A stretch of 40,520 nucleotides of DNA from Paraglomus brasilianum (taxonomy: Eukaryota). Position 1 is the stretch's first letter; the number at the start of each line of letters is the position of its first letter. Below the pieces are notes generated by a model. The model saw only the letters and a list, made by a program, of their open reading frames with translations, was not told where the DNA came from and did no database searches. Of the stretch, positions 6,506-38,858 are shown piece after piece. The stretch spans positions 1 through 40,520 of the forward strand of contig CAJVPI010000235.1 in assembly GCA_910592345.1 (NCBI GenBank), in the 5' to 3' direction. A program made the translations under genes and the position numbers.

Positions 6506-7304
6506 TTATGCATCAATCACAGCCATTGTGTTAATCGCTTGTATTAATGTGTCCTCATCAGAAGTAGTAAATAATGTAGCAGGATATACTTTGCTGCCCC
6601 ATTTGGGATGGAGAAGAATCTTGCAACAGTTGGCGTTTTGTGATTGATACTTGAGAAGCTGTTCTGCCCCGACTATTTCTGGATACCCCGAGGGACCGGG
6701 TGATGAATACATCTAACGGGGAGGGGGAGGTAAAGAATCATATAATACGTTATATACTGTGGAAGGACTTTGTACACACAATTGGATGAGCTGTACGTTA
6801 TTGTAGTAGAATAGAATTACCGGATATCCTGATGCTGGGTCAACCAGATCGGCCCAATGACCACGAGCTTTCAAGTATTCGCAGATTGCCTTGCCCCATT
6901 CAATGAACTTGTGGGGGAAAAAGAAATGATGATGAATGCAGTGAAACTTTGGATCGGATAACTGGCAACGCAAATTAGATTCAACAGTCTATAATCAGGC
7001 AACATACATTTTCAAGTTTTTCATCCCTTTCTTTATCAACAACTTCACCAAAAGCTGCCAGATCATTGACACAGTTTTGAAATGTGGGGATAACCAGACA
7101 TTTATCTAAATCTTTTACTTCGGGAAATACACTCTTCAAGTCTCTGGCATATCGACTCGATGCTATCGAGTGGATCGAATATTGAATGCTGAATTTTCTG
7201 TTCGATGAAAGTAGAAATGTCCCTTCTGTTGATGGCAAGAGTATCGTTGGTCGATTGTAGCGAGATTTCTTTTTTAATGTTTGAGTGGCTGTTAATTCGA
7301 CCAT
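6506..7304 (-). CDS. MMADHC: MMADHC/CblD-like cobalamin trafficking protein (3 exons)
   Basis: Exon 1 is 7304-7008, exon 2 starts at 6907, exon 3 is 6712-6506. Motifs: RDLKSVFPE, LVIPTFQ, ERDEKLENFIEWGKAICEYLKARGHWADLVDPASGYP, CCKILLHPKWGSKVYPATLFT, all typical of the MMADHC family. Confidence 0.88.
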
Positions 7305-8036
7305 TTTTTTTTTCATAAAAAAATATGTACACCATCGCGGAATATTTGCTTTTTATAAGGGATGTTTAATCACGTGGTAAACATGTGAGTAATACTGCTA
7401 CGCTGATTTCTTCACAAAGAAAGTCTAGGCTGTCATGTCAGATTGTAAAAGTCTCGATCAAAATAATGTGTATCTGGAATGACGTTACGCGAATTACATA
7501 ATTACGATTATAAATCTTAATCTGTCGTTCGCATGCTAATACTGTAATACGCATAATTGCTAAACTCACGTGATGTGAATTATGCAAGACAGTTTACGGT
7601 TTACAAACATGCAGGTCGTGCGTCTCATGCTTTGACTAAACAATACGTCACTGTCAAAGACAATGTCGTGTTACCGTAGGAAGAGATAATGCATGTCTTT
7701 AAATCGGATGTTGTCCGTGCTAACATTTCAGTAAGTAGCTAGTTCACAATACGGCCATGTCCAAATTCAGGTAGATCAAGAAGTACACATTCTCTGGACA
7801 TGGATTCGTGGACCCGCAAACAGTAAGCATCACAACAACCAAATAATTCATCATAACGTAGCATAAATATTTTAATATAATAAACATGCATTTTCAACGA
7901 TATCCTTTAGAAAAGAATATCAATGCTAAGAAATTTGATAATTCAAATATACAAATCTGCAAGACTAATGATAATTTATACATTTGTGAAGTTTACAAAT
8001 TAAGTAATACTTAACAATCAATGATATCATAGTAAT

Positions 8037-11000
8037 CTACCACTGATACTCTTCTGGAGGGATCCAACCATCTTCGTCTCTAATAACTATCTCACCCTTT
8101 TTGTTCTCGTCGCCTCCACTTTTCTCGCCGTCTTCTTCAGTTTGCTGACTTTTCTGATTTTCAGAAAAATCTTTCATAAGAGCCAGCGCATCTTCGACTT
8201 CCATACTTCCCCAATCAATAAAGCTCTCTTCGATCGCCAACTGCACCCCGGTATCCTCTTCTCGCTCATCGTCTTTTTCATCAGCATTCGACTTGGGATC
8301 TTTTCCGTTGCCGAGGCCACTCTCACTGTCACTGCAAGCAGTACTTGTACTTTTGTTGCTTTTCATGCCTTTCTGAATCTCTTGAAAGGCCATCATCAAA
8401 TCTTTGTAATTTTTGCTGCTGTCATCGTTTTCGTCGTCGTTATCCCTTTCTGTTTGCTTATTCGCATTTGGCGGTTTCTGCTTTTGACGTTTAGATTTCT
8501 TGTGCGCTTGAGAACTTGACCCCGAAAACGAGTTTTGGCCCTGCTTATTGCTTGCAGTATTTTTTTCACCCTGTGAATCTGGAAGATCTGGTGAAGACGT
8601 CTCTTTTAGAGGAAATTGACTTAATTGCCATCCAAAGACTCTTTCCTGACGAGAGGACGCCTGAGACGAATGAGACGATGATCTGCTTTTGTGGACTTTA
8701 TCCGATTCTCGTTGATGCGAACGAGAACGGTCATTGTCGAAATCTCCACTATGTTGTTCCTGAGAGGGTCTATGTTGTTCCTGAGAGGGTCTATATTTCG
8801 GGCCATTTGGGCCATTTGGGCCATTTTTATTATTATTATTGTTGTTATTCTTGAGGGTCTCGCAGTCTCTAATATGGTGACCTGGCTTTTTGCAGTAGTT
8901 ACTAATAAACCACAAAATAGAAATAAGCTGGTGTCAATGCGATTATCTAATAAACCAAACAAACACGGTATTTCTATTGTATGTTGTATATGTGCGCACC
9001 AGCGTTTATTCGGACAGTCTTTTGCCACGTGTCCGGTTTTGGAACAATAGTGGCTGAAAAAGCAACAGAGCACGAGTGAGCGATCACACTTCTTATTAAA
9101 TCATAAAGCATTTTAACGAGTATCATATAACAGGGTAATTGTTTCAATTTTGATCTAAGAGTTCTTACCAGGTTATTTCGTTTGACTTATTAGGACAGTC
9201 TTTGGATATATGACCGGGTTTCTTACAATAATAACTAATAGACATTGGAGTTAGTCAACATAACTCTAGTAATGGACTATTCTGAATTACAACGTGCCAA
9301 CGTTACATACCATATCCGCTCGGAAGGCTCTTTCGGGGGGGCATTCTCATTTTTTTTACTAATGAAAGTTTAAAGACGCACATCAGCAAATAAGTCAAAT
9401 AAATACTAATAATCGACGCGTAGTATCCATACCGATAACCATCCTGCCTATTATTGTTGCCACGTTTTTCTAATGGAGCGATACAACTCACGTCAATCAG
9501 TAACTTTCCATCAAAACGATTAAACATTTCAATATTTGCAGCAACTTAAGATATCTCACCCCCGGCCCAATCTTCGCTCATAACATTGTCCGTCCATATA
9601 TTGTTTTTGTTACGTTCGTTTGGTTTGGAAGTAGAATTCCGACCAAAATTTGTCCGATTTCGGCCACCCAAATCTGGAGTCCCCCAATTATCAGCGTCTG
9701 GAGCTGGCCGGTTCGCTGGACCACGACTGTCACCAGTATCTGAAGTTGACCAGTTCGGAGGGCTCCAATTCACCGTCTCGTCGATTGACCAATTTGGGGG
9801 GCTCCAACCACCAACGCCCGGAGCCGGCCGATTATTTGTCGAGCCCCAACCATCAGCGTTTGGAGCTGACTTATTCGTAGATTTCCAATCATCAGAGACT
9901 GAAATTGACTGGCTGTTACTAGAACTACTATCAGCATTCGGAGCTGACTTGTTAGTCTTCTGCTGACTCCAACCATGAGTAGCTGAAGACGCTTTATTCG
10001 TAGATTGAGCTGAATTATCGTTATTTGGAGCTATTGGCGTAAAAGTAATGTCTGGAATATCGCTCTTGATAAGGTCCCCAGCTTCTCGTTTTTCTTTGAC
10101 ATTTGTTTTCGAATCATTTCTTGCCTAAAAAATCCCCCAAATTGATTAACATTCTGATAAACAAGTGAGAACTTTCTTGAACACACCAACTTTTATCGAC
10201 ATACTTCAGCTCCATTCGCCTCCGCCTGATCTGCCGTACGTGAATCTTCATCAAACGATATATCCTCCTGATGAGTAAATTCCGTCTCTTGTTTATATGC
10301 AGAGTTCATCTTGCCGGGTTTAACGACCAAATCCGGTGACACGTCATCAGGAGATTTCTGTTCATGACAACGACAACAGTATGTACTTATGTGGATATGC
10401 ATGTCTGTTACACATCCTTGACACAGTCTGTAATATAGTTCATTACGAACAGTTTTAATTATATAATACTTTTTTATATTTGGATCAAATGTAAATCCAA
10501 TAGTGATCCAAACGTTGGTGTTAAGAATGTCCGGATAGTCGACACATAACTAGCGTAATTAATTGATCGATTAATAACGCGCACCCAGGTATAAATATCC
10601 CATACGTCTTCGTATCTCACCTTGTAATAAAATAAACCATCTGCTTTATCCGGCACCTCGAACGGAATCAGTTCCACCCTCTCGTGGATAACTGCATCGC
10701 CATATAATTTTTCGTCAAAGCGCTCAAGCTTGCTATCAAATTCTATCCAGGTGAATGGGATCCATTCCAAGTAGGCTTCATTTGCAGACTTTGTTTGCTT
10801 TTGTGATTTTTTAAGAAATTTGTCAAGTCTCTTATCATTGGCGGCCAATCCTCTTAACTCTTTCTGGCCACATATACACCATACTGCGCTACACCTGAGT
10901 ATCTTACACACGGTACAGTATCCATAAACCCAAAAAGACTTTTGAGCTACTAGATAGTAAGTGTTCTCGTGTTTTGTAAACCCTGTTATCCATTTATTGC

Positions 11001-11352
11001 GATTCTTGAGTAATGATGGATATCTTCGGAACTTGTTGATGTTGGGCAGATTTATATGCTTAGACGTCGGTATTGAATGGATCTTGGAAAATGTTGCCAT
11101 AAACTCTGGAGTCAACTTGTCCTGCGTTCCAAGTGGAAACAAGGCTTCCGTCACTTTCTTGTCGTTCACATTTCGTGTGGCATATAGGACGCTTTTAGAC
11201 GCTTGTGGTGTGACTGTAAATTCTGACCCATCGATCCATTGAATGTGTGCTGTCGATGGTTCTTCTTTACTATCATTGATCAATTGGTCGATTACAGAAC
11301 ACCCTGAGAGGGACTTTGTAAACACTTTAGAAAGTTTTTGGAAGAATGCCAT
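8037..11352 (-). CDS. ~903-aa, 8-exon protein: degenerate kinase-derived Cys modules, GW/WG-rich disordered region and three CCHC zinc knuckles
   Basis: Exons 11352-10621, 10549-10205, 10124-9560, 9469-9433, 9358-9311, 9234-9169, 9053-9000 and 8901-8037 join at GT-AG sites with matching phases (2712 nt, divisible by 3). Knuckles: CYYCKKPGHISKDC, CHYCSKTGHVAKDC, CNYCKKPGHHIRDC. The N-terminus has YGYCTVC...WCICG...LDKFLKKSQ...YLEWIPF. The 5' start is uncertain. Confidence 0.65.
8749..8850 (-). repeat. Short coding tandem repeats (21-nt x2 = RPSQEQH; 9-nt x3 = NGP; poly-Asn)
   Basis: On +: ctatgttgttcctgagagggt twice, gggccattt three times, then (tta/ttg)n. Confidence 0.85.
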
Positions 11353-16078: not shown

Positions 16079-18703
16079 CTATTCATCGGTGTTTTCCTTA
16101 CGCGGCTTTTTGATCGGTGTTGCTGGAGCCTTTCCAAAACATCCGCCAATTGCATTTTTATCCACAAGATTTTTTCTTTTTCGATATGTTCGAGAATGTG
16201 CAAGGGCAACATTATTTACATGCTCGCATATAGATTTGAGAGTCGCCTAAAATTAAATAATAAAATATATCTAACGAGAAACAGGATACCTTTAAAAGCA
16301 TAACTGTTATAGTTAAAGTACCTTGGTATCTAACATAGTTATTATGAACCTTTCTAAACATGGTAGTGTCGCTGTTGTGTTTGGGAGTATGGTTTGGCGG
16401 AGTCTCCCAAATCGCATTATATTTGTGGCCTTGCAGTCCATGCCGTACATCTCGTGGGTCCACCTTAGTCATACAAAATTAAACAAACTAAATAGTTAGA
16501 CACATGCTTGCAAACTCATCACCGCATTTATCACAATTGTACTTACCCCCATGACTGCATACCAATCACGTAAGTCTTGTGAAGCTCATCATCCGGCGCA
16601 TTCGAATTAGAGCGAAAAAACTGGAAGACGATATCACGAAGGGCCACCGCCAGATCCATGCGATCCATGAAGATCTTTTTTCTATGTGTTTCGGGAAGCC
16701 CGCCACTCCTAAGACCAATCAGAGCTTCGACGCTATTAATGCTATTTTTTAGTGTCCCTCGAAAGTCACATTTTTGCCCTACACGGGCACGGAGAACAAC
16801 AGACCGGCCAACGTTACGCCGTTGAGCTGAAGCCCAACAAGCAATTTCGCCGCTATAATCATAAAGGATTATAATGAATACGATAGAAATGGAACATCGA
16901 CTATGTTTGTACATACACGTCCATCTTGAGTTCCTTTAAGTCAAGGAGTTTCCTTATGAGCATGTTTGTAAACATATTATCGAACGACGCTTCAGAGACT
17001 GGAACATCAACACCACGTAAATTTTCGGCACTGCGGAGAAATGTGGTTATTAGCATGGGCAATGTAAAACAAAATTTAATTGAACAATTCCTATAACACT
17101 GCACATACTATGCCGTGATAGCGCGTCGAATAACAACTATATTTTCTCGGTCTTCAGAACTAAGCACAATATTGTATGTTTTTTCGATTGCCTTTGGAGA
17201 TATCTGCTCGATTGCTGTGACAATATCACTCGCTTGAGCCTTGACAACCTGAAAGTATGGGTCTGACATTAAGTTTGACTGCGATCTACTCTTATTAAGC
17301 AAATTATAATCTCCTACCTTCTCAAGCTCGTCAAAGAAGTATAGTGTGCCATCTGAGATTTCTGACTCTACTAGCTGAACTTCTTGTTCAAAGCTGCTCA
17401 ACATTTCTGTCCAATCCTCAGTTGAAAATAGGCACCTTATTGCAGAATTATCACCCGTGAGGTCCAGGATATTCCAGTATGCTGGACTGCAAACAATTTG
17501 CAATCAATAAATAACCATAAGAAATTATTGCAAGGATGCATGCAAATGATAATGAACAACTTACTCAAAACACTTCTGAGAATTTGGGATGGTCTTCACA
17601 TACTCTGCAAGGACAGAGCTGACATTTGTCCCACTTTGCAAGATCCACAGCCTTTGAGGGCTTGATTTTGGCTCATCTTCAACACGCTCTATGTATCCAT
17701 TATCAATGTGGTCACTGACTTTGTCATAATCATTACTATATTCAATCTCATCAGCATTGAGTTTGCTATTATATTCAGTGCCACTGCTGCCAGTGTTGCC
17801 ACCTTCACGATCATGATCCAGGGAAGAAACACATTTAGTATCTGGTGTGTCTGATTGTTTGCTCAGAGATTTTGACATCTGGTTGACAAGTATGTCTCCT
17901 TGTTGGTCAGTTGCAGCATCAATTACTACCAATGCAGTGAGCTGTGCATTTGCCTGAACATCTGACTGTTGTGATAATAGGTTAGCATGAAACCGACTTT
18001 AGGTAGAAGTATCCATTATACCTGTTTTGCTTTAATTCTTTTGTTCTTTTCATAAGAGTTCCAAAATTCCGTGACGTCAAGCGTGGGTTTCTTCGACAGA
18101 ATAAAAGTGAATTAATAACATTATTAAAAACTTTTTTGGTGTGTTGCTTGGTGCAGTTCGCCGGAGCTCACTATCTTTTTTTTTGCACCAGGACGGCACC
18201 CATACTGAGTTGAGGGACGGTACCTCCCCTCAGCGGTGCAATAAGATGTATGAGCCCACAAAAATTATGCGAGGACGACACCCACACTCCTGTTAGGGAC
18301 GGAACCTCCCAGGAGTTGCATAGATTTTGCTGTCAACGATGCAGAGATTCACGTGTGCTGTACAGTGTATGGGTTTACAAACCTTTGAGATTAGATCTGA
18401 GGCAACTCTACGTCGTTCTTCGTCCACATCGTGCGCTTTGATATCTTTGAGGTAATTTAGGAAACGCTTTCGCCAAGTTGCTCTTAATACAGCGACCGAA
18501 GCGTTTAAATTGAAGTCACACCGCACGGCAGTTAAAAAACCATGATACGCCCATTCGTCGATAGGGGCCGTATCGAAGTACTGAGTAACTGAGGCTAAAC
18601 GCGATAATTCATACGTGTAAGACCGAGTTTATCGCGCGCTTTGAGAGGGACCAAACGTACCATGGTGATGCACCCTTTTATCGTTGATTTTACCCCGAGC
18701 CAT
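16079..18703 (-). CDS. Crinkler-type restriction-endonuclease-fold (PD-(D/E)xK-like) protein of the expanded Mucoromycota/Glomeromycota family, multi-exon
   Basis: Spliced in phase: MARGKINDKRVHHH|ASVTQYFDTAPIDEWAYHGFL...|KPTLDVTEFWNSYE...WILQSGTNVSSVL...PAYWNILDL...SEASF...GEIACWASAQRRN...RARVGQKCDF...EALIGLRSGG...KIFMDRMDLAVALRD...VIGMQSWG|WTHEMYGMD...TPIKKPRKENTDE*. The family call is from motif recognition only. Confidence 0.65.
18164..18329 (-). ncRNA. Putative intronic tandem structured RNA element (two covarying units)
   Basis: Two ~57-nt units (18184-18240, 18266-18322) have different but complementary stems and conserved loop/junction sequences. They sit in a 292-nt intron (18091-18382). 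Strand is taken from the host gene. Confidence 0.55.
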
Positions 18704-19489
18704 AGGCGAGACACAGTTAATATATTAGACACAGTAATATGACGTAGACAATAGAAGCAACCGTTCGCGTTATCTACAATTTTCGATCTGCGAAAGACTA
18801 GTCATCCCTCCTTTAAAACATGCAATTTTATTGGTTAATAAATCCGGTTAACGTTTATATTTAGTATTAGCCTTTCCTACGGGTTAAAATAACCTTTGAT
18901 TGAATTCTCTCATTACCTTTTAGCCAATAATAAGCTGATTTCCAAAACAGATTGGATCGATGACGGTGAGAACACACATAATAAATCACTCGCATTCCAT
19001 TTACCAGATAGCTATTTAATGTGTATAATAAATAGTTTTCACACTCTATTACATGCTTTGTACTCTTAAATAAAGTAAACTGAATATACTATACATACTG
19101 ACATAAGTTACATAATAAATAAAGGTGGTGCGCCAGCATATCGTTTTGATCTTGACCCGCAATCTGCCACGCGTCAGCGAATGACTGTCTCGATGACGGA
19201 CGAGTAATACAATTAGTAACACGAATAATATGAGCAACAACGCTAGTATGTCGTTTGAATTGCATAACAGACAGTAGGCTATGCAAATGGTCTAGCGGCC
19301 TTGCTGAGCATTACTTCTTATTATTTACCTTTGAACATGACATCAAGAGCTTTCTTATCCAAATTTTAGAATTATGACGACTACAAAAGCGAGTCACTTT
19401 TTCCCCTTGACAATTATGTTTGCCTCACCCAACAACAAAACGTCTTATCGCAACTCTAATGGCCCCTTTCTATACGCTATCTTCCATTT

Positions 19490-20600
19490 AATGCGATGTA
19501 AAAAATACAAAGAACATCTGGTCAAGGCCAAGTTAGAGAGAAACTCTGTTTATACCGGAAATGTATATACCGGAATCTCACGGACAGATTCTTGCGCACT
19601 GTTTGTTTCATATGAAAATTCTTTGTTTATACCGAAGTCTCTTATAAACTTTCCATATACGGGATCCGGAAGGACACAGAGAGCTATGCCAACCCGTTCG
19701 GTATAAACAGAGTTGACTGTATTACAACAAAAATACGAATTATCTTGTGACGGGAGGTAAAGCTGATTATTGTAGCATAGACGCTACTGCTCATTACAGT
19801 TATGATTGAGCACAAAATGTTCACGTTCTGTATTCCGATCAGCAGGTAAGTAAGATTTATTATCTCAGTCCGCGCAAAGTACATTTATTTGGTATTCAAA
19901 ATAATGCAGTACGCGAACAAATTAATTACGTTCTCGATGAAGACGAAATTATCGGCAAAGGCACTGAGCATATTTGATGGAATTAAGAGACTGAATAAAG
20001 GTGAAAAATATTTAAAGATTACTTGTGATAATGCAGGAGATCAGAATAAAAATAATGCTACCATTTAATTTTATCTGTATTTAGAATTACAAAAGTATTG
20101 AATTGAATTTTATTTTTGGATTAATTAAAAAACTCTATAGAAAAACAGTGGTAGATTGTGTGAATCATATTGTTGAAGTTGTGAAAAAATTGAGCACTGC
20201 TGGATTAAACAAAGCCCAGTGTTATGACAATGGGAAAGGCTTCCAATACTTAGATCTTACTTCTGTGTTGGGAATTTTCTTCAATATCAATAAATTAAAT
20301 GGTTTGCAAAAATATCAGCATTTTCTTTTTGAAGCAGCTAACCCTGGAGTTGTCAAAGTCCAACTGGTTGCTAATGGCACTTATACAGAATATAATTTAT
20401 TGAAAACCAGAAAAGTAAGTGTTTCTGAAATTACCAAAGAAATCAAATTCTTTTCCATTCTAGTACTAATACTAATCCCACCTCCTTTGGATTACAAAAG
20501 GCAAAAATACCTTTATCATAATATTCGTCCATTTGTTAGACAATTCAAATATATTACTTGTCCACGACAAATTTATACTGGAATGAATAAATTCTCTCCA
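19490..20600 (+). mobile_element. Decayed DDE transposase, Sola-like (DNxxxQNKN type), pseudogenised
   Basis: YKEHLVKAKLER/[MITE]/YYNKNT...HYSYD*AQNVHVLYSDQQVSKIYYLSPRKVHLFGIQ...QINYVLDEDEIIGKG...KITCDNAGDQNKNNATI*F...FGLIKKLYRKT...LQKYQHFLF, with stops and deletions. Confidence 0.75.
19542..19721. mobile_element. pogo/Tc1-mariner-like MITE inserted in the transposase relic
   Basis: 16-bp inverted repeat AACTCTGTTTATACCG (19542-19557) / CGGTATAAACAGAGTT (19699-19714). The right end is GACTG-TA; internal TATACCG(G)A repeats; the outer left end is eroded. Confidence 0.7.
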
Positions 20601-22842
20601 TTACTTCATCACTGTCATTAAGTTCTCCATCTAATTTTTCAATGAATTTCGCTAGCTTTTCCTGCTTTTAATTTTAAAGCTTAAAATAATTATATACTGT
20701 ACTTCATATACCTCATAAAAAAATAAGTATATAAACAGAATAAAAGAAAAGCATGGTAAACATAATAATAATATCAGTGCTCGAACAGAGAAATAAAAAA
20801 TTTTTAGAAGAAAACGAAACAATTAGCAGATAAAAAGAGAACTTTAAATAAAAGCGGCTCACTGCCTTACTGAAAACTTAGAATATACTGGTACTGCTTA
20901 GAAAGGTTGATAATTGTTGAGTAATCGTTCAAGAAAAAGACGGAGTTAAGTACTCCGGAAATATTGTTAAAAGTTTTGCTAAGGAAGCATAAAATTATGA
21001 AAAATTTTTTAGTTTTACTTACTGAGAAAAAAAGAATTAGAAGCAAGGATAGAAGAGTTAGAGGATAAAGTTGGAGCAAGAAAAGGCTGAAAAGGTACTG
21101 AATGCAGCTATGAGGTTGTCAACGCCGGAAGACCACACGAACGCTCTCTCACGTGTGGCGATCCGACAAGGTGAAGAAAGTGCCAAATGTCTGAAGCACA
21201 ATGCTGCAATGGGTAAACTTATAGATCGAATAAGTGATTGAAAAATAGTTTGTTAAATAAAGATCAAGAAATAAGCAGAAGAGATTATTTAGCAACCAAA
21301 GAATCACCAGTTTTACCTAAAAAATTAGCAAGTAAAGCCAAAGAAAGCTAAGGAGAAATCCGAAATTTTATTATTCAAAAGAATAAGTAAATCATATGAG
21401 ATTAGAATATAGAATTCTGGGATAGTAAGCATCGAAAGGAACATTTACTAACACAGTGATTGATAAACCAATACCCACAGGAGTCATGCAATGAATTTCT
21501 TTGCATTAATGTCCATAGTAATAGTTGGCATTAGAGCAATGCATAGTATCAATGGATCCATCACTGGTGTTCAAGAAAAATGGCACCAGGAATCATCATC
21601 CATGGTCTAGCAACTAATATAATAATAAAGCTTGGACAACAACATCTTGCGTTATAAACTTGATTAATTAAAACCCCCCCTCTTTGGTGGGTAGAAAAAA
21701 AAATTAATTATTCTTTTAAAACATTATTGGTTAGATACAGAGCGCCTGCGCTAGTGATACCACAAAAATTATTGGGGAACTAGAAAAACTAATATGGCAA
21801 ATTGGGGTACAATGGAATTTCTCTAAATCAAATGCGTTCCAGCAATTTTCAGCGAAATGCGTACTGGAAAGACCCCGAGTCGGGTTCCGTCACTTGTCTC
21901 AAACCAATTAAACAATTTTCGGTTCAATAAATAATTATTGGCTCTCGTTCCTCAATTATAATTAAGAGTAATAGATCAACGGATAATTTATACAGCTTAA
22001 TTGAGCTGTTTTTGCAACTTGAGTGAGCCGTTTATTAATATCTGGTCAAATAAATAATATTTCAACAATGAAAGAAAGTAAAGTTTCGATTTCAAAGGGA
22101 ATCGTTTATTTGATTATTATTCCATGGAGTGGGAATTATTGTTCTAATACTAATAACCCGAACAATAATTTACAACATGAACAATATTTACCACATATAC
22201 AACATTAACAACATGAGAATATAAGGGCCGCTTATATAACTAGCGATTACCAAAAATTGAAACAAAAGGTATCAGCACAGAAAATTTCCAAGAACCAATA
22301 GATTCTAAGTTACTAGTGGCGCTACTGACGCTCAAAATATGTAACATACTAATACTAATACCTGCATTTGCATATGTATTCGTTGGTAGATGATAAACGA
22401 GATCTGCTATCCTCCTTTTGACCTCTTCAATTTCAATTTATGACGAAGTCTATCGAACAGGTAACCAGGTAGTATGTAGCACAAACTTCCGCTTATATAA
22501 TTTAGATCACATCTGTACATTATTATTATGTGAAGTAAAGTGATAATATTTGGGTAAAAACCGTTACCAATTCTCTTATCCGAATTTTACAGTATTAGTA
22601 TATACAGGGACTCGCAGTCGCAGAAAATAGATCTACTAAGTCCCATGCTCGGGACCGCTCAAAAGAGGTTCGACTGTATTATTATGTGACATCATGATAA
22701 GAACGTGTGCTATGAACGCCCAATCATAGTTAATCAAGTTTGGTTTGAGAATACATGACGTGATTGATTAACAAAGTTAACATCGAAATACCACCAATAA
22801 TTACTCGAGTTGTGTGATCCGCTAGCGACCGCTTCTCACATA

Positions 22843-25669: not shown

Positions 25670-28600
25670 CTATATTATTTTGTATTTTCCAGCAAGAGTC
25701 AAATAAGTTGGAATTATTTCCTTTCCGACTAATAGCCGAGTCATCGAATATAGCAGGATAATAAATAGAACAAATAGTGAACTAATGCAGAAATGACTTA
25801 TCGAAGTGCCAATCTCTAACCAACTCCCATCATCTCTAACTAAATAAAAGAAATTTAACGTCATCACATCCGAAGTCGATATCACCAGCAAACATAAACT
25901 AAATGAAGGTAAGCCCAATGCTTTGTTGATGATGTAGACCGCAGATGTGACAATAAAGAATGGAATCAATAGCTTAAGTAGCAACAATGCACCCATGAGA
26001 AATGGGTCAAACACTGTTGTCAATCTATATACACTCTGTAAAGAAAAGCTACTCAAACTAGCTACATTACCAGTGCCAAAGAATGCTACCAGCATGAAAA
26101 AGAGAAACATTAACGAAATGCGAAGATCTTCCAGTGTCAATGTTCTCTCTTTTCGTAATTCCCATGTTGGTTGTCGCTCCAGATGCAGATGTCGTTCCAA
26201 GGCAAGCCATATCCAAAGAGTTATTGAGAATATACAATAGAAGAGTACTTCGTATGAGATGCTCAATATTACAAACAACGGAGCGAACGACAAGTATATC
26301 GATATGAGACGATATGCGTAATGTTTAGGGTTAGTTCGTTCGTGAACAAATGGTGTAAGTATCGATATCACTAAAGAAATGATGTTTATAGTAGAGTGTC
26401 AGATGGGATACACACTTGGTTTGAATCCATGACAAAATTTCTTCTTGATAGTTTTAAAACTCACCTAGGATAGCCCAGCCGAGATACTTGTTCAAAGTAG
26501 GCAATCCGGTCTTTGCACGTAAACTGCTGGCGGTACCATACACAGTTATCATACTCAGTATAACCAGTATTAGCTATTATGCGGACAGTAGTCATCGAAT
26601 ATGTTAAAGTTTGAGCAAGGAACAATATTTCCAATTAATTTAAAAAAAGCATCTGAAGGAACATTACTAACCTGAAAGAGAAAAGTCATGCCAATAACAT
26701 TTGCGTCTCCTTGCGTTGCCAGACTATGCTTCTGATAATATGCATAGAGGCCAGTTATCATGATAAACAATCCACCAATGAGTCTATGAAAATGTAGTAA
26801 GACGAATATCAGTAAAGGCTAATATTATCGTTGAGATCAAGTGTGTTCATACACAATACTCACACCAATGTTATGTCTTCTCCTTTCTCAACAGGTAGCA
26901 GCGTGAATACACTACAACACAGGCAGCATAAAACCCATTGGAAAATCCTCTCAGGAACTTCGGTCCACAATGATTTCGGCATTGCCAATGGCCATATGGC
27001 AGCGAGTAAGAAACAAATGTTCAAGACGCTCCGATAGAAGTAAGCAAGAACCTATCGTACAACAATTGAAGAGGTGAATTTTATTATTTTATTTTATTTT
27101 TTTAAAAAAAGAATAAACAGATACCTCCTTACCAGCATTTGCAAAATCGCTAAATATCCGATAATACATCCAACAATAATCACAGGACTACGTTTTTCAA
27201 TCGCCAGCTTCCAAACATCAAAAAAAGTTCTACGATCCTTTAAGACTTTGTTCCAAAAGAATATTGGAAATACAACATATGCATAATACGTCGCGGGCAT
27301 TTCTTGTATATATATTATAGAGAAGAGCAGGAAGAATGCAACACTCGAAACAATGTTTATCTAGTAGTCAGCAATTGGTTAGTCGATTTGCATATTGTAA
27401 TTTTATAATAAATCACATACAGGCAGACCAGCTGTCAATATACTTACAAGATTTTCATATTGATCCTTTTTAGCGTGTGAGATGCAGAGTACGTATTCTC
27501 TGAATACAAAACTTAAACTGTACATTATCCATCCGATATATCCAGCATTGACAATTGATCTTAGGAAAAGCCAATCGTACCTATAAAAACAAAAAGCTTA
27601 AATTAGATGGGTATATTAAAGCGTTAAGAACATGATGGTCGATATTCATATTCCACATTGATGTATGTCTTACGTTTGTAAATATCGCAGTCCTTGTAGA
27701 GAGAGTTCAATCAGATCTAAGCACAACGCTTCCGCTTCTCCATATTCACCAATATCGATTAGTTCTTCGATGCGAGATATTAGTATTTCTGGTTTGTGAG
27801 TAGCATTATTCAAAGGCGCATACGGCTTAAACATTAGTTCTGTCTGTTTCTTGCGTGCTAGTAAATATGATACAAATTAGATTTCTGAATGATAGCTTGT
27901 TAAGGTAAGCGCGTCAAAGTCAAACATACCATTTTTGACATTATATTGTTCCAATATTTCCAACGCATTCACATAAATGCTCTTTGCTTTGAAATAGGGC
28001 GTGTTGTTTAGATATGCTAACGGTAACTCGCCTACAGAGTTAACAGGATAATTAATACCGATCAACGATGCCTAATGAGTTAAACAAGGTTAACTGTCAA
28101 CACGAAATTTTCTATAATTACCAAAAAAGGAAGAAAAAGAAAGAAAAAGAAAACAAAAGGAAAATAATTTCTGCAAACATACCATCAAAGGCGCAATGCC
28201 CGCTTGAAGAACATCGTTACGCTGAACAGAATTGAGACCCCATGGAGCAGAATAGTCATCGTGACCAGTCGGATGAGAGTAGTTTGGTTTATTGACGCCA
28301 GCTCCCCAGGAAATCAGAGGAGTGCGTGTATTATCAGGATGTCCATCGCCATGGTTACCTATAGAAAAGAATAATAAAGTCAGCTTTGATCAATCAAGGG
28401 TCAAAATACCCAAGGTCTTTCAACCATACATCATTTTTTACCTCTATTACTCATTCCATGGTCAGCCGTAAAGACATAAGCAGTCTTTTCGTCGTGTTCG
28501 TAAAACTCATCCATAAGATTTACAACTTTGCTAACTATATCGTCCACTACTTTGATATTATCCAGATATTCTTGAGAAGATGGGAGATGCGCATGACCAT

Positions 28601-29509
28601 TTGTATCCAGACCCAACAAGTGTAGAAAGAAGACTATACGGTCCTTATGCAATTGGGAGAAGAGAATATCATCGTATTTCGCACGATCAAACAATTTCGT
28701 AAACTTCTCAAGAACCCAAAGGTCTAATTCCACGGCATCTAATAAAGGTTAACGAGTCAGAACTTGCTGCAATGACTAGCATAGATACAAAAACAGCCAT
28801 TTGAAGTTCTGCTTACCTTCAGCAAAGTCTTCGCTCTCGGATGCATACATGAACGTGTCGACACGATTCGGATCTGATGCTCCCTCAGCAAACATAGGCA
28901 ATATATCTGGAGATCCGAATGACCATGTATGTTCACTCTGATTGAATACAGAGTCGAATTCAACTGGATTCATTTTCCATCCTAAACGAACGTTGTTTTT
29001 ATATTAGTCGATAAAATCTTTTTGATTTTGATTCGTTATAGACTAACCTTTTGTCACTGCACTAACGTCCTCGTAAAATCCTGCAATAAGAGCTACATGT
29101 CCCGGTCTTGATTCTGTAGGTACACGTGTATGAGATATGCCCCATGTTCCATGATTAAGTACAAGATCCCTTAGATATGGTGCGTTTGATTTCATCGTAG
29201 CGTCCCTTTGCGGATATAATTGAAACAATTTGTCTGCTCTCAATCCATCAGCTTGCGTAAATCAGACAGAATGACAGTATAATTAGCGCAATCACAAGAT
29301 TTTGTTATTCGTGGGACTGTTAAGCAATACGTACCAACAACTAGTACAAGCCTCTTAGCGGGTGGTGGTGGCTCTTCCACTCTATGGGGGGCCATCCCAT
29401 GCACTAAGGGTGATGTGAAATATATGTCGAATATACTCCATATATATACTACATGAAATAACGTTCCTATGAGTAATAGTATGTTCAACTTTGCGGTTAT
29501 AGCCGTCAT
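25670..29509 (-). CDS. MCD4: GPI ethanolamine phosphate transferase 1 (MCD4/PIG-N), multi-exon
   Basis: [116 protein letters not shown]. Confidence 0.95.
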
Positions 29510-29588
29510 CAGCTTGGAAGATGTTTGATCTTTGAACGGAATGTATGAATCGAAACGAAGAAATTGAACTTGGCATATTTAACCTGTT

Positions 29589-30322: not shown

Positions 30323-33300
30323 TTATCTTTGTTGAAATTGATTTATTCGCGTTTGTCGAGAGACATCCAAAGATTGTGTGTAACCCCATAATTCTGTTGT
30401 CAGCATTGTTTCGTTAAAGCTCAGGGTAACCAATCTATAGAACAGCATAGAATTCCATCAGCACAAAAAACGGATGGCAATATATACATGACGCGATTTC
30501 TTATCTTTGATATAATGTATTTTAAACGTCACCTTGCTAAGGTCATTCGGAAATTTAAATCATCTTGAGTCATCAATGCATTTCCCGACTTTGCCGCTTC
30601 TCGGCGTTGATTCACATAGTGATTTTGAATATGCTGTTAATGATACGATAGTAAAGTAAGTAGTTTGATTATATGTTCTTCATTTTAATTAAATTCGTAT
30701 CTTACACCGAATACGTCATTATAACTCACCAGTGAGACTTCCTCTGGTATATTGTAATCGGCATATCGCAATACGCTCAAGTACGACCTAAAACTATTAA
30801 TTAACTCTTCATTCAGTTGGTAAGACTGAGATTGATCTGTGGGAGACAAAGGAATGGTACAATCACACTGATAGTATAAGCAACAAAATGTCAGAATGTC
30901 AGTATGTCAGTGACGGAACATAATCGTAGCGTAAATATATACACCGAATACTCACCGGAAGTAATGACCTGGCATTCGACAGAACTATAACTCCAATGTC
31001 TGTTTCGTATTGAAAATTGTGAAACGGAAAGGCATAACCTAACTTTTGCTGAGTTAAAATTCCTTCAATAGCCTGAACATTGCGCACACCTAGAATCAAT
31101 CGTTCAAAAGCAATGTGTCACTGATGACTTTAATTATCATATCAGTGTCTTAAATATCCATTTGCATAACATCCCACATGATTACAGCTTCACAAAGACC
31201 CATTCATTTGCCTTACCACCTTCGTACTTACCACTTTCCCCAAGTTTTCCTTCCTGTAACACGGTCTCATCAATCAACAGCCGCGTCCCTTCAGCCACTT
31301 GCAATACACCACTCTCCAAAAAGCCATCATCAGCATCGAGATTTCGAGGATACATGAACACGTTATTCAGTATTTCCAAAGTCAAAGGAAGATCATGGTA
31401 AAGAGGAAGGAGGGAAGAAAGCAATGCGGAGACGGTTGAGGAGAAGTATGGTTTGTGGGTTAGAATGATTGGAGTAGATGAAGGAGAGTTTGAAGAGAGC
31501 TGAGTGTGCGATGACATCGGTGAGTTCGTCGCCGATGAGCTAATGTTAGTTATGTTTAAAGAAAATTTTCCAAGTATCAAACCACTTCTTCGAGAATGAC
31601 TGTTCAATAAGAATTCAGTTACATGTATTAGTGGATTATATTTCATAATAATTGATACAACTAAACTTTCGATCTAGTTGGTATCACCAAATTAAATGGG
31701 TTACTACTTACACTCTAGATAATAACTGGAGTAATAGAAATTCAGCAACCAACTCATCACCACAAAATACACTGGCAATATATCGAATTAATTCTCTTCG
31801 TATTTCGCGCGCGTTTTCCCTGACAATTCGTTCAACTAAGGAAAAAGGTTTTCGTCAAGTACTTCTTTCAGCAATTCATATGCGAAATCCATCCTTCTTG
31901 ATTGACACTTACTACTGGGATTACGCAACAATGGATTTCCACTTGGATGAATCTTACGGAAAAATATTGAATGGATGCATGGCACGGAAAGTAATGCTAG
32001 CGGGTCGACGAAGCCATCTCCGTCAGCATCGGCATTTGGAGGTGGTCTGTATGAAGATGGCGTGAGAGCAAATAATTGAGCAATATCAAAAATGAATGGA
32101 CAGAATTATGTAATACCTGTGTTCTTCAAGTACTCCGACGAATTCTACCACGTCAGTAACTTTTATTGACACATCTTTTTCGTAAATCTGCAGTCATATA
32201 TCGTGAGAGTCGACCGGATTACCGGCAAAATCAATTAATGCATCATGTGTTCGTCTCGACTGACCTTGACAACAACGCCAATATGCTTCTCATTGGGAAA
32301 TGGATATTTTGAATCGATGCGCTTTTTTCTTTTGTCAATGTCAGTATTGTTAATAGATAAAGAAGCTGTTTGCCATGTCAATCCTACAGTAATTAGACGT
32401 TTGTCATGAATTGAGTAAATTCAAACAATTAACTTCAATAAAGATACTGCCTAATATCACCTTCTATGGAATCTTGTGTGCCTGTGCCTTGGTGATATTC
32501 AGATCTGAAACCGTGCTATACACAATAACGTGCAGTTAAGAATAACGATCATCAAGAAGACACCTAATAGTAACCATCACTTCAATAGAAAAGGATATTT
32601 TTCTTGCCCATTCTGTCTCACCGGGTACGGAGGTAACGTAAAAGGAACATTTCTCGTCAAAATGGCTGTTCTGTTGTTCCAGGTTTGGGTCTAGTCTCTG
32701 TTCCTATACATAGTAGATGATAAATATACGTTAAACCAGAGCATTGACTAAAGGCAAAAGTGTAACAATTGATATCGGTTGACCACAAATATGAGAATGA
32801 CGTCGTCCTAATGGTATACATATTTCTTAACCTCCGCCCTGACAACCTGATTCTATCACTTGTGATAACTTACTTCATCGTTATAATCCTGGTACCGATG
32901 CAATTTCCAAGTCTGCAAAAGCAAATTACAAATACAAATCATTAACTAACACTTGACTATCGCGATCGCCTATTACTATTCTAACTTGTTTTTCACGCTT
33001 CAAGTATACGTGGCAATAACGGATAGATAGATCTCCACTAACACCTGATCACCATTCCGGTCGAGCGATTCATGTACAGGAGCATATAATTCAACGGCGA
33101 GAAAAGTATTTTGTATCATTCCTCTAAAGCGAACGAGAGTATTGGGCTGAATTTGGTCGACGGGAATATCATTTAGAGAAGGTATCTGTGGGATAAACAC
33201 GATGTAATTTGCCGCGAGAGTAAAGAAGGAGTTGAGAAAGGGAAAAGAGAGCAGCTGTTAAAATCTTATGCATTAACAATATTCCCTTGTTATAGATGGT

Positions 33301-36734: not shown

Positions 36735-37736
36735 AGGGAGTCGACAGATTTGGACGAATTGAATTGTAACAATATTTTATGTAACCCTTAATAATTTACG
36801 CATTAGTATTAGTATGCAATGTAATTTTTATAATAATGGAATCGATGTTTTTAACAGTTTCTTGTTTTGCAATTCCGTGGTTTATAGAAAACGTCGCTTG
36901 GCCGAGCAAAGCATGATGGCTTTAGTTCTCAATTTGTACATCTGAAACACGCTTGTTTCATGGCGTTTATCAATCTAAAATTACTACCGCGAGGTATTGC
37001 GCAATTGTGAAAATAAGGATAGCTCACATTACATAATTAGACAAACAAATCCATGGAATCAACCCGGTATTTGTTTATTAAAGATGACGATCCAACTGGT
37101 ATATACTATAGGATGTCTAGTAGTAAAGCTGGTTAAAAAGTCCCTCGCGATAGTAAAGCCGGTTATCGTGACGCTTTTACTCCTTCTTGCCAAGAAAATG
37201 GTCTAAACAGACGTTGCAGTAAACGATGCTTAGACTTGTAAAGCGACAATCTACGGCATTTAATTCTTTGTTATGCATATTATGATTAGCAGGGTATTCG
37301 CATGTGAATATCTGCATTCTTATCTCTAAATGAGACATTTTATAGCCATTATCGTTGCCTAACAAACAATGGGTTTACATCAGATATTAATATTAATGTC
37401 CACTAGTCTCATCCACAATCCAAAGCATGCATGCGGTTTGCAGAACAAGGTCTTGTTGCTAGATTGTCCATGGATTGTCAGTGTGACGTTGGTATTAACA
37501 CGTGGGTTTCAGATGAGTTATAATAACCATTTTAGCATTTACAACTGCACATCCAACTCTGACTTTAGCCTTTCGCCCCCCCAACAAATATTGTTTGTTG
37601 GGGCAAAGATGAATCCCTATAAGTACTAAATAAAAATATACATGCGTATTTACTATAGCATTATATAAACATCGCTTCTAAAGAGGGATTACTAGAATAC
37701 CTCGTCGTTCCATCCAAACAATACACAGGATCAACG

Positions 37737-38858
37737 ATGTCGCTTCAATCTCGAATCGATGCTTTGCTCGAGTCTTTCGGCCCTCCACCTCCTCCTCCGC
37801 GAGGCATACCCTTCCCTCAGCTCTACCCTATTGTGATGGACTGGCGATTTCCTCTTTCTGTTGCTGTTGCATATATTCTCTCCATTCTCGCTCTCAATCC
37901 AAAATCATCCGCTGTTTCACGTGTGGTAGCCAAATCAAAAGGATTAAACACAGCATACACAAGCAAGCAAAGTGGAAAACGAATGACTGCATTCGTTTTC
38001 GTACACAATGCATTCTTGTTTTTGTATTCTGGGATCACGTTTTATAATTCCTTTGGTGCGCTTTCCAAACGACATAGAACGGCCGAAAGCTGGACTGAGG
38101 CATTCTGCGATCACGGAAAGGTTTGCTGGAACGAAGCATTTGGCTATTGGGCATATTTGTTCTATCTTTCAAAATGTGAGTGTAGAGTACATTAAAGAGA
38201 AACGTACTGACATCACGCTTGTAATAACGAATGTCTACTTTGCCCATTTGTTGCATTCTCATTTATTTGTCCAGATTACGAGATAGTCGATACAATCATA
38301 ATCCTCGCTAAGGGTCGTCGTTCTTCCTTCCTTCAGTCATACCACCACGCGGGAGCCATAATCACAATGTGGATAGCTACAAAATATGCAACGCCTGCAG
38401 TTTGGATTTTCGTTCTATTCAACTCGTTTATCCACACAATCATGTACTTTTACTACGCACTCACCTCAGTTGGATTCTCTCCACCTGGGAAACAGTACTT
38501 GACAACGGCTCAGATTCTGCAATTCGCAGTTGGAAGTACGATTTCGTTTCTGTATTTTGTCATACCTGGATGTATGAGTGCTGGTCAAAGGTTCAGTGCG
38601 GTCGTGACCCTACTTTATATCGGTCCGTTGCTTTATCTGTTCTTTGATTTTGCACTTAGAACTTACGGAAAGGGTAAGAGATTCAGTAAAGCAGATGCCA
38701 AGACAGCTGTTAATGGAAAGGTTATGAGCAATGGCATGAGCAATGGCATGAGTAATGGCAAGAGCAATGGCATGAGTAATGGCAAGAGCAATGGCATGAG
38801 TAATGGCATGACTAATAGAAGAAGTATTTTTAATGCTAATCGTATGTTTAGTTGGTAA
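37737..38858 (+). CDS. GNS1/SUR4 (ELO) family fatty acid elongase, QxxHH type, 2 exons
   Basis: FVFVHN...YLFYLSK|YYEIVDTIII...SSFLQSYHHAG...FNSFIHTIMYFYY...KQYLTTAQILQF; intron 38176-38274. Confidence 0.92.
38724..38816 (+). repeat. Coding 12-nt tandem repeat (SNGM/SNGK x7) in the elongase tail
   Basis: (AWGAGYAATGGC)n encoding MSNGMSNGMSNGKSNGMSNGKSNGMSNGMTN. Confidence 0.9.

Follow-up and report, generated by a model that had tools for sequence, protein, structure and literature searches.

The Tetrahymena protein CnjBp, a partner of the Argonaute Twi1p, carries tryptophan-repeat, low-complexity sequence beside zinc fingers and, in the available text of the reports on it, no enzyme domain (PMC5737661, PMC5666084); the combination of GW repeats with zinc fingers is found in NERD as well (PMC5737661, PMC5666084, PMC6562869). 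Spaced tryptophans in G/S/N/D/T-rich sequence are common to NERD, GW182/TNRC6, Tas3, NRPE1, SPT5L and SDE3. Sites in TNRC6 consist of two tryptophans at least 10 residues apart (PMC9262622). On a published scale for WG/GW domains, scores above 6.99 count as positive and those from 25 to 150 as "medium", SDE3 having 74.5; its authors add a second filter, an internal composition score below 2.14, and report false positives for their score (PMC2910046).

Here we report a gene of the arbuscular mycorrhizal fungus Paraglomus brasilianum, on a stretch of 40,520 nucleotides (contig CAJVPI010000235.1, assembly GCA_910592345.1; hereafter the window), whose product joins spaced tryptophans to zinc knuckles and kinase-derived repeats. 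The parts are of known kinds, and their combination would be what is new. In CnjBp the zinc fingers, which we take to be CCHC knuckles, are flanked by GW domains on both sides, whereas the present protein has far fewer GW/WG motifs and kinase-derived repeats at its N-terminus; homology between the two is neither shown nor expected. The likeness to GW182/TNRC6, Tas3, NRPE1, SPT5L, SDE3 and NERD is one of sequence, extending to a medium-class score and to some spacings of at least 10 residues, but the domains that accompany the hooks in those proteins were not detected here and only four of the ten tryptophans in the central region adjoin glycine.

A spliced and transcribed gene

Eight exons between 11352 and 8037 on the minus strand join at GT..AG introns into a frame of 903 codons without an internal stop. 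In RNA contigs six of the seven introns are bridged, each at the predicted bases and with GT..AG boundaries, and no single contig from the eight RNA runs searched, out of 13 listed, spans the whole gene. A sequence-only reading of this DNA had proposed that open reading frame fragments that look separate belong to one frame; this is borne out, with correct coordinates, and the locus is one spliced, transcribed minus-strand gene. The join that reading most wanted checked, 10205/10124, is present in run X1, a rhizosphere metatranscriptome (the short side of the joint is 90 letters), and the orthologue described below is continuous across it. Joints 8901/9000, 9053/9169, 9234/9311, 9358/9433 and 9469/9560 are present in runs X2 and X3.

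Exon 1 (10621-11352, minus strand as for all parts of the gene; aa 1-244) holds the start codon, the first kinase-derived repeat and the first half of the second, and is covered by RNA contigs in pieces from 10641 to 11319. The mRNA of a relative, read by hand from a loose contig end, begins with the identical Met-Ala-Phe. Exon 2 (10205-10549, aa 245-359) completes the second repeat and adds an acidic linker, and exon 3 (9560-10124, aa 360-547) is the tryptophan region. Two short linkers follow, exon 4 (9433-9469, 37 nt) and exon 5 (9311-9358, 48 nt, its last codon that of the first knuckle cysteine), both joints of each being present in X2. Exon 8 (8037-8901) is mostly covered by RNA contigs, which reach into a 3' untranslated region at 7881-8036 (X2, 7881-8038; X4, from 7906).

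Intron 1 (10550-10620, 71 nt) is supported indirectly. The eight RNA runs searched yielded no contig of this gene that bridges it. It is the best frame-keeping splice pair, and we prefer it because its donor resembles that of intron 3 and because it matches a junction in a paralogous mRNA, where acceptor 10550 is joined to an exon-1-like end (loose contig ends, read by hand). The frames of metagenomic relatives also diverge at this place, directly behind a shared YYxK/V site. Other splice pairs that keep the frame, among them a 35-nt intron at 10584-10550, were dropped in favour of the 71-nt one.

The same parts occur in the same order in P0001, a 648-aa protein of Paraglomus occultum that is about 70% identical and, out of 697 candidates, the only longer protein related to exon 1. 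Identity ranges from 64 to 79% across the aligned regions and is highest over aa 287-359 (79%); the tryptophan region, at 69%, does not stand above the others.

The downstream neighbour of the gene (6506-7352, minus strand) matches Pfam MMADHC, of cobalamin trafficking (E 5e-8). Elsewhere in the window lie genes for an ML-domain protein (2399-2935, minus), the GPI ethanolamine phosphate transferase PIG-N (25673-29578, minus), an MCM-binding protein (31185-31673, minus) and an ELO fatty-acid elongase (37659-38855, plus). Several open frames of 110-180 aa without a Pfam match, at 16546-18628 (minus) and 19341-20618 (plus), are possibly mobile-element remains or orphan genes. No RNAi gene was recognised among the 22 neighbouring frames scanned.

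The tryptophan region and its possible partners

Exon 3 is rich in S, N, D, G, T and P and contains the ten spaced tryptophans listed in the sequence-only reading, W411 to W545 (9971-9567, minus strand), two phenylalanines and no tyrosine, tryptophan being the only enriched aromatic. Successive spacings are 28, 13, 14, 5, 8, 5, 22, 30 and 9 residues, the net charge is -3 over 189 aa, and internal repeats are visible. The series W439-W452-W466 (13 and 14 apart) fits a spacing of at least 10; the two W-x4-W pairs fall short of it.

We scored this region with a re-implementation of Table 1 of PMC2910046, which is plant-trained, applying only the first of its two filters. Residues 393-558 reach 75.5 when trimmed to the peak and 49.2 with decay tails, and P0001 reaches 25.6, barely inside the medium class; hook scoring, which had been proposed as a check, thus places both species above 6.99. 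None of 202 other proteins exceeded that cut-off, nor did any of the remaining segments among the window's 282 in six frames, a background that is small and is not a fungal proteome. The value of 49.2 lies above chance: in 1000 shuffles of each kind it was never attained with the whole protein, never with the pooled low-complexity parts and seven times when the tryptophan exon was shuffled in place.

The GW/WG character claimed for the exon calls for a correction. Glycine adjoins four of the ten tryptophans against 1.4 expected in shuffles (p 0.04) and five of ten in P0001 (p 0.004), and the score passes the cut-off; still, GW/WG dipeptides account for a minority (4/10) or half (5/10, P0001) of these residues, most of which are flanked by N/D and S/T instead of G. 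Eight of the ten fall in [GND]W[GSTA], classes picked after inspection of the sequence. The whole protein has five GW, three WG and a single GWG, which is GWN in P0001.

Both species have ten tryptophans. Nine of those in P. brasilianum are kept in P0001, where the first GW is lost and another gained. Statistically this conservation is weak: against a background of 68% identity, nine of ten gives p 0.12 (counting the tail, 13 of 14 and p 0.034), from one orthologue. Several tryptophan-free islands are fully conserved between the species.

On the Argonaute side, a metagenome-locus Argonaute exon used as query gave 260 matches, of which 120 were listed, 24 of them Glomeromycota-named. At the equivalents of F653, K660, C691, L694, Y698 and P700 these 24 listed sequences show no variation; at that of R688, 19 have R and 5 have K. 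Y698 we take to be a residue of the tryptophan pocket, and we presume that residue numbers can be carried over relative to the catalytic Asp. The equivalents of F587 and V591, presumably also pocket positions, differ in the Glomeromycota Argonautes examined. Residues were located by their offset from the catalytic Asp, a procedure that recovered seven of eight motif occurrences as expected in a fish Argonaute control, and the pocket itself was taken from bioRxiv 10.1101/2025.10.18.683247 and PMC9262622. Retention of these residues may be structural and is no more than a necessary condition for hook binding.

None of the 120 matches listed, out of 260, bears a Paraglomus name. The sequence-only reading had also appealed to expanded Argonaute families in arbuscular mycorrhizal fungi. 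Such an expansion is documented for Rhizophagus irregularis, with 40 AGO-like proteins (PMC6399891, PMC8647823), but not for Paraglomus; the genome of P. occultum is small, poor in transposons and repeats and has fewer kinases, and the available text of its description gives no Argonaute count (PMC9453076). The argument from context is therefore weaker than claimed. The fungal Argonaute partners named in PMC8647823 are ARB1/ARB2-like, HRR1 and STC1 homologues, and searches of the open-access literature brought up no Argonaute hook described from Glomeromycota.

Scans of a viral-contig collection returned one intronless frame of 891 aa for a eukaryotic, insect-like Argonaute, on a 51-kb contig (L001:946-3621, plus strand), either host contamination or a captured gene. 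Two other Argonaute-motif matches in these scans were set aside as chance.

Taken with the pocket residues, the score leads us to rate a multivalent Argonaute-hook adaptor that holds RNA through its knuckles as a credible candidate and the likeliest of the readings considered, its role predicted from composition and its fusion to kinase fragments apparently restricted to Paraglomus; we put its probability at roughly 0.45. The main rival, since GW/WG repeats of Drosophila GW182 can repress mRNA without AGO1 (PMC2965232), is that the tryptophans dock in an aromatic pocket of some protein other than Argonaute, or serve as stickers in condensates, in an RNA-bound repressor or decay adaptor working without small RNAs. 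The N/D and S/T flanks of most tryptophans and the two W-x4-W pairs below the 10-residue spacing are consistent with it. CCR4-NOT would, we assume, be a possible partner for such a repressor. Glycine adjacency, on the other hand, is enriched in both species, the composition resembles that of Argonaute-binding domains, and a generic sticker would not be expected to need tryptophan almost to the exclusion of tyrosine and phenylalanine. We regard this rival as rather unlikely.

Zinc knuckles and kinase-derived repeats

As the sequence-only reading had stated, three CCHC knuckles follow the tryptophan exon. They are of the form CX2CX4HX4C and lie at aa 576, 598 and 616, the first encoded by exon 6 (9169-9234; Pfam zf-CCHC, E 6.7e-7), the second by exon 7 (9000-9053) and the third by the start of exon 8. 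Exons 6 and 7 are both phase 2-2 with joints seen in RNA. In each knuckle a phase-2 intron falls within the first cysteine codon, a sign of exon duplication, and the number of knuckles differs between the species (three here, about four in P0001). An X1 contig over 9169-9234 (minus) has a backward joint and different linker letters, as might come from a related transcript whose tandem knuckles are arranged differently.

The knuckles match the RNA-binding knuckles of nucleocapsids (Gag) and Air2, and tandem CX2CX4HX4C knuckles are shared with Air1/2, Gis2/CNBP and retroviral nucleocapsid proteins. There the likeness stops, each knuckle here being interrupted by an intron, with neither capsid nor polymerase present. 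An LTR-retrotransposon Gag was rejected as an identity for the protein, which has no capsid or other retroelement domain and whose gene, unlike an intronless element, has seven introns, of which three interrupt knuckles. A cellular protein with several knuckles, acting as an RNA chaperone or a cofactor of RNA surveillance like Air1/2, Gis2/CNBP or a nucleocapsid, would account for the knuckle matches and for their varying number, which fits duplication of phase 2-2 exons; the tryptophan region would then be a local repeat expansion with no dedicated partner, as its internal repeats and its unexceptional 69% identity might indicate. Yet a search with P0001 of 5165 candidates of 356-1134 aa recovered, besides P0001 itself, a single PAP-associated knuckle protein, matching over 11% of the query, and no Air, Gis2 or Gag protein. 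The lack of a capsid or retroelement domain and the count of ten tryptophans in both species likewise tell against such a chaperone, which we consider improbable.

Beyond the knuckles, exon 8 encodes an N/S/Q-rich stretch, a basic patch (aa 750-758), an acidic end, a terminal tryptophan and the stop codon. The tail had been called acidic: its motifs and terminal W are present, but it is clearly acidic only in the last ~110 aa and includes the basic patch. The acidic end with two tryptophans is conserved in P0001. As hook motifs, FGWQ, DWGS and DGWI find no support: they score 4.7-6.2 when trimmed and negative with decay tails, and the three form no scoring domain; DWGS is RWRN in P0001. Two islands, aa 664-684 (21 residues) and 779-796 (18 residues), are identical between the species amid variable low-complexity sequence and may matter as much as the tryptophans.

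At the N-terminus a pattern of about 150 aa, SGN..EWIP..YGIT..Cys4, occurs twice. Repeat 1 (10873-11307, aa 16-160) is a degenerate kinase N-lobe with a Cys4 ribbon behind it (12.9 bits); repeat 2 (10364-10833, aa 174-306) is more diverged, is split by intron 1 and matches in two stretches (11.5 and 2.9 bits). Against a profile built from 15 repeat units of six Glomeromycota kinase proteins, the two copies total 26.1 bits, compared with a maximum of 6.9 in 300 shuffles, so the kinase-derived modules proposed earlier are indeed there. The catalytic motifs HxD..N (HRD), DFG and APE and the glycine loop are absent from the protein; none of the five exon pieces scanned has a Pfam kinase match, and the N-terminus has no Pfam match of any kind. 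An AlphaFold2 model of exon 1 (pLDDT 77) has only kinases as its top Foldseek matches, the best being EGFR over ~115 columns (E 3.5e-3), a resemblance that would be weak alone and agrees with the repeat profile. From the profile matches, the missing catalytic motifs and this agreement we conclude that the N-terminus consists of a pair of N-lobe/Cys4 repeats without catalytic function, such as precede Glomeromycota kinase domains. Tyrosine-kinase-like proteins of Acaulospora morrowiae (CAG8529826.1, CAG8444192.1) and Gigaspora rosea (RIB27635.1) have the same tandem pre-kinase repeat, with a kinase domain after it; here none follows.

An unfiltered HMMER search found 78 relatives of the N-terminus, the named ones from Acaulospora, Gigaspora and Rhizophagus. 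Nine are at least 300 aa long, five of which reach the PK_Tyr_Ser-Thr cut-off. Neither a true knuckle nor a scoring tryptophan domain occurs in any of the 78, the single knuckle-pattern match being the repeat's own Cys ribbon. As the other 69 are fragments below 300 aa, the fusion is best called unusual and not unique. The closest relatives of the repeat (P0003-P0027, 33-55% identity) are metagenomic fragments. A tree of repeat units groups repeat 1 with 13 metagenomic relatives (96/89) and has repeat 2 on a long branch; it places neither repeat 2 nor the order of events. Short stretches of several diverged transcripts in the RNA runs match exon 1 or exon 2 (10205-11352), so the repeat is one of a family present in multiple, expressed copies.

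The full set of parts was found outside this gene only in P. occultum, in keeping with the lineage-specific origin first proposed. A metagenome scan with the tail alignment gave no relative among 599 pattern matches, and ESM Atlas gave no usable match for exon 3 or exon 1. In these searches, which low-complexity sequence escapes, the combination turned up in two Paraglomus-type genomes only.

That di-tryptophan and acidic tryptophan motifs bind a vesicle coat, as in ArfGAPs and SCY1-like proteins, with the kinase fragments a decoy for tyrosine-kinase-like kinases, we think very improbable: those families are among the ones that such a score picks up (PMC2910046) and the acidic end with its two tryptophans is conserved, but the tryptophan exon is near neutral, the N-lobe repeats are no SCY1-type pseudokinase, and the three knuckles with the basic patch point to nucleic acid.

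Removal of 677 nt as a GT..AG intron, 11104-10428 (minus), would keep the frame, delete most of both kinase-derived repeats and give the annotated P. occultum model, from which aa 85-286 are missing; such an mRNA is a possible alternative isoform. No splicing of this kind was seen in the RNA contigs. We give very little credence to an artefactual fusion, a two-gene read-through or an mRNA that skips most of the kinase-derived part as in that annotation, for although intron 1 is unbridged, no contig covers the whole gene and the 677-nt intron keeps the frame, the 10205/10124 joint is found in RNA with the orthologue continuous there, and the alternative donor (X3, 11028-11255; X10, 11068-11319; two studies) and acceptor (X3, 10331-10490; one study) are crossed by RNA contigs with no splice there.

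A candidate adaptor and what it would mean

If the protein is an Argonaute-hook adaptor, pairs of tryptophans in a presumably disordered region would dock in PIWI-domain pockets of Argonaute, while the knuckles would hold single-stranded RNA. The spacing of W439, W452 and W466 might allow several RISCs to be bound at once. The kinase-derived repeats would have been captured from an expanded kinase family and could now serve as a protein-contact module or be a passenger. A fuller version, which we offer tentatively and think doubtful as a whole, is a CnjB-like scaffold built in the Paraglomus lineage, which captured two kinase N-lobe repeats, gathers RISCs on knuckle-held RNA and links silencing to the kinase network, and which would be the first Argonaute-hook adaptor of arbuscular mycorrhizal fungi.

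Should the partner not be Argonaute, the protein would be an RNA-binding scaffold, an orphan confined to a single genus and of modest interest. Either way, fragments that this group repeats before its kinases have been reused outside kinases. If the adaptor reading is true, the tryptophan repeat would be a first handle on RISC recruitment in mycorrhizal fungi and, in an intractable group, a ready pull-down bait that needs no genetics.
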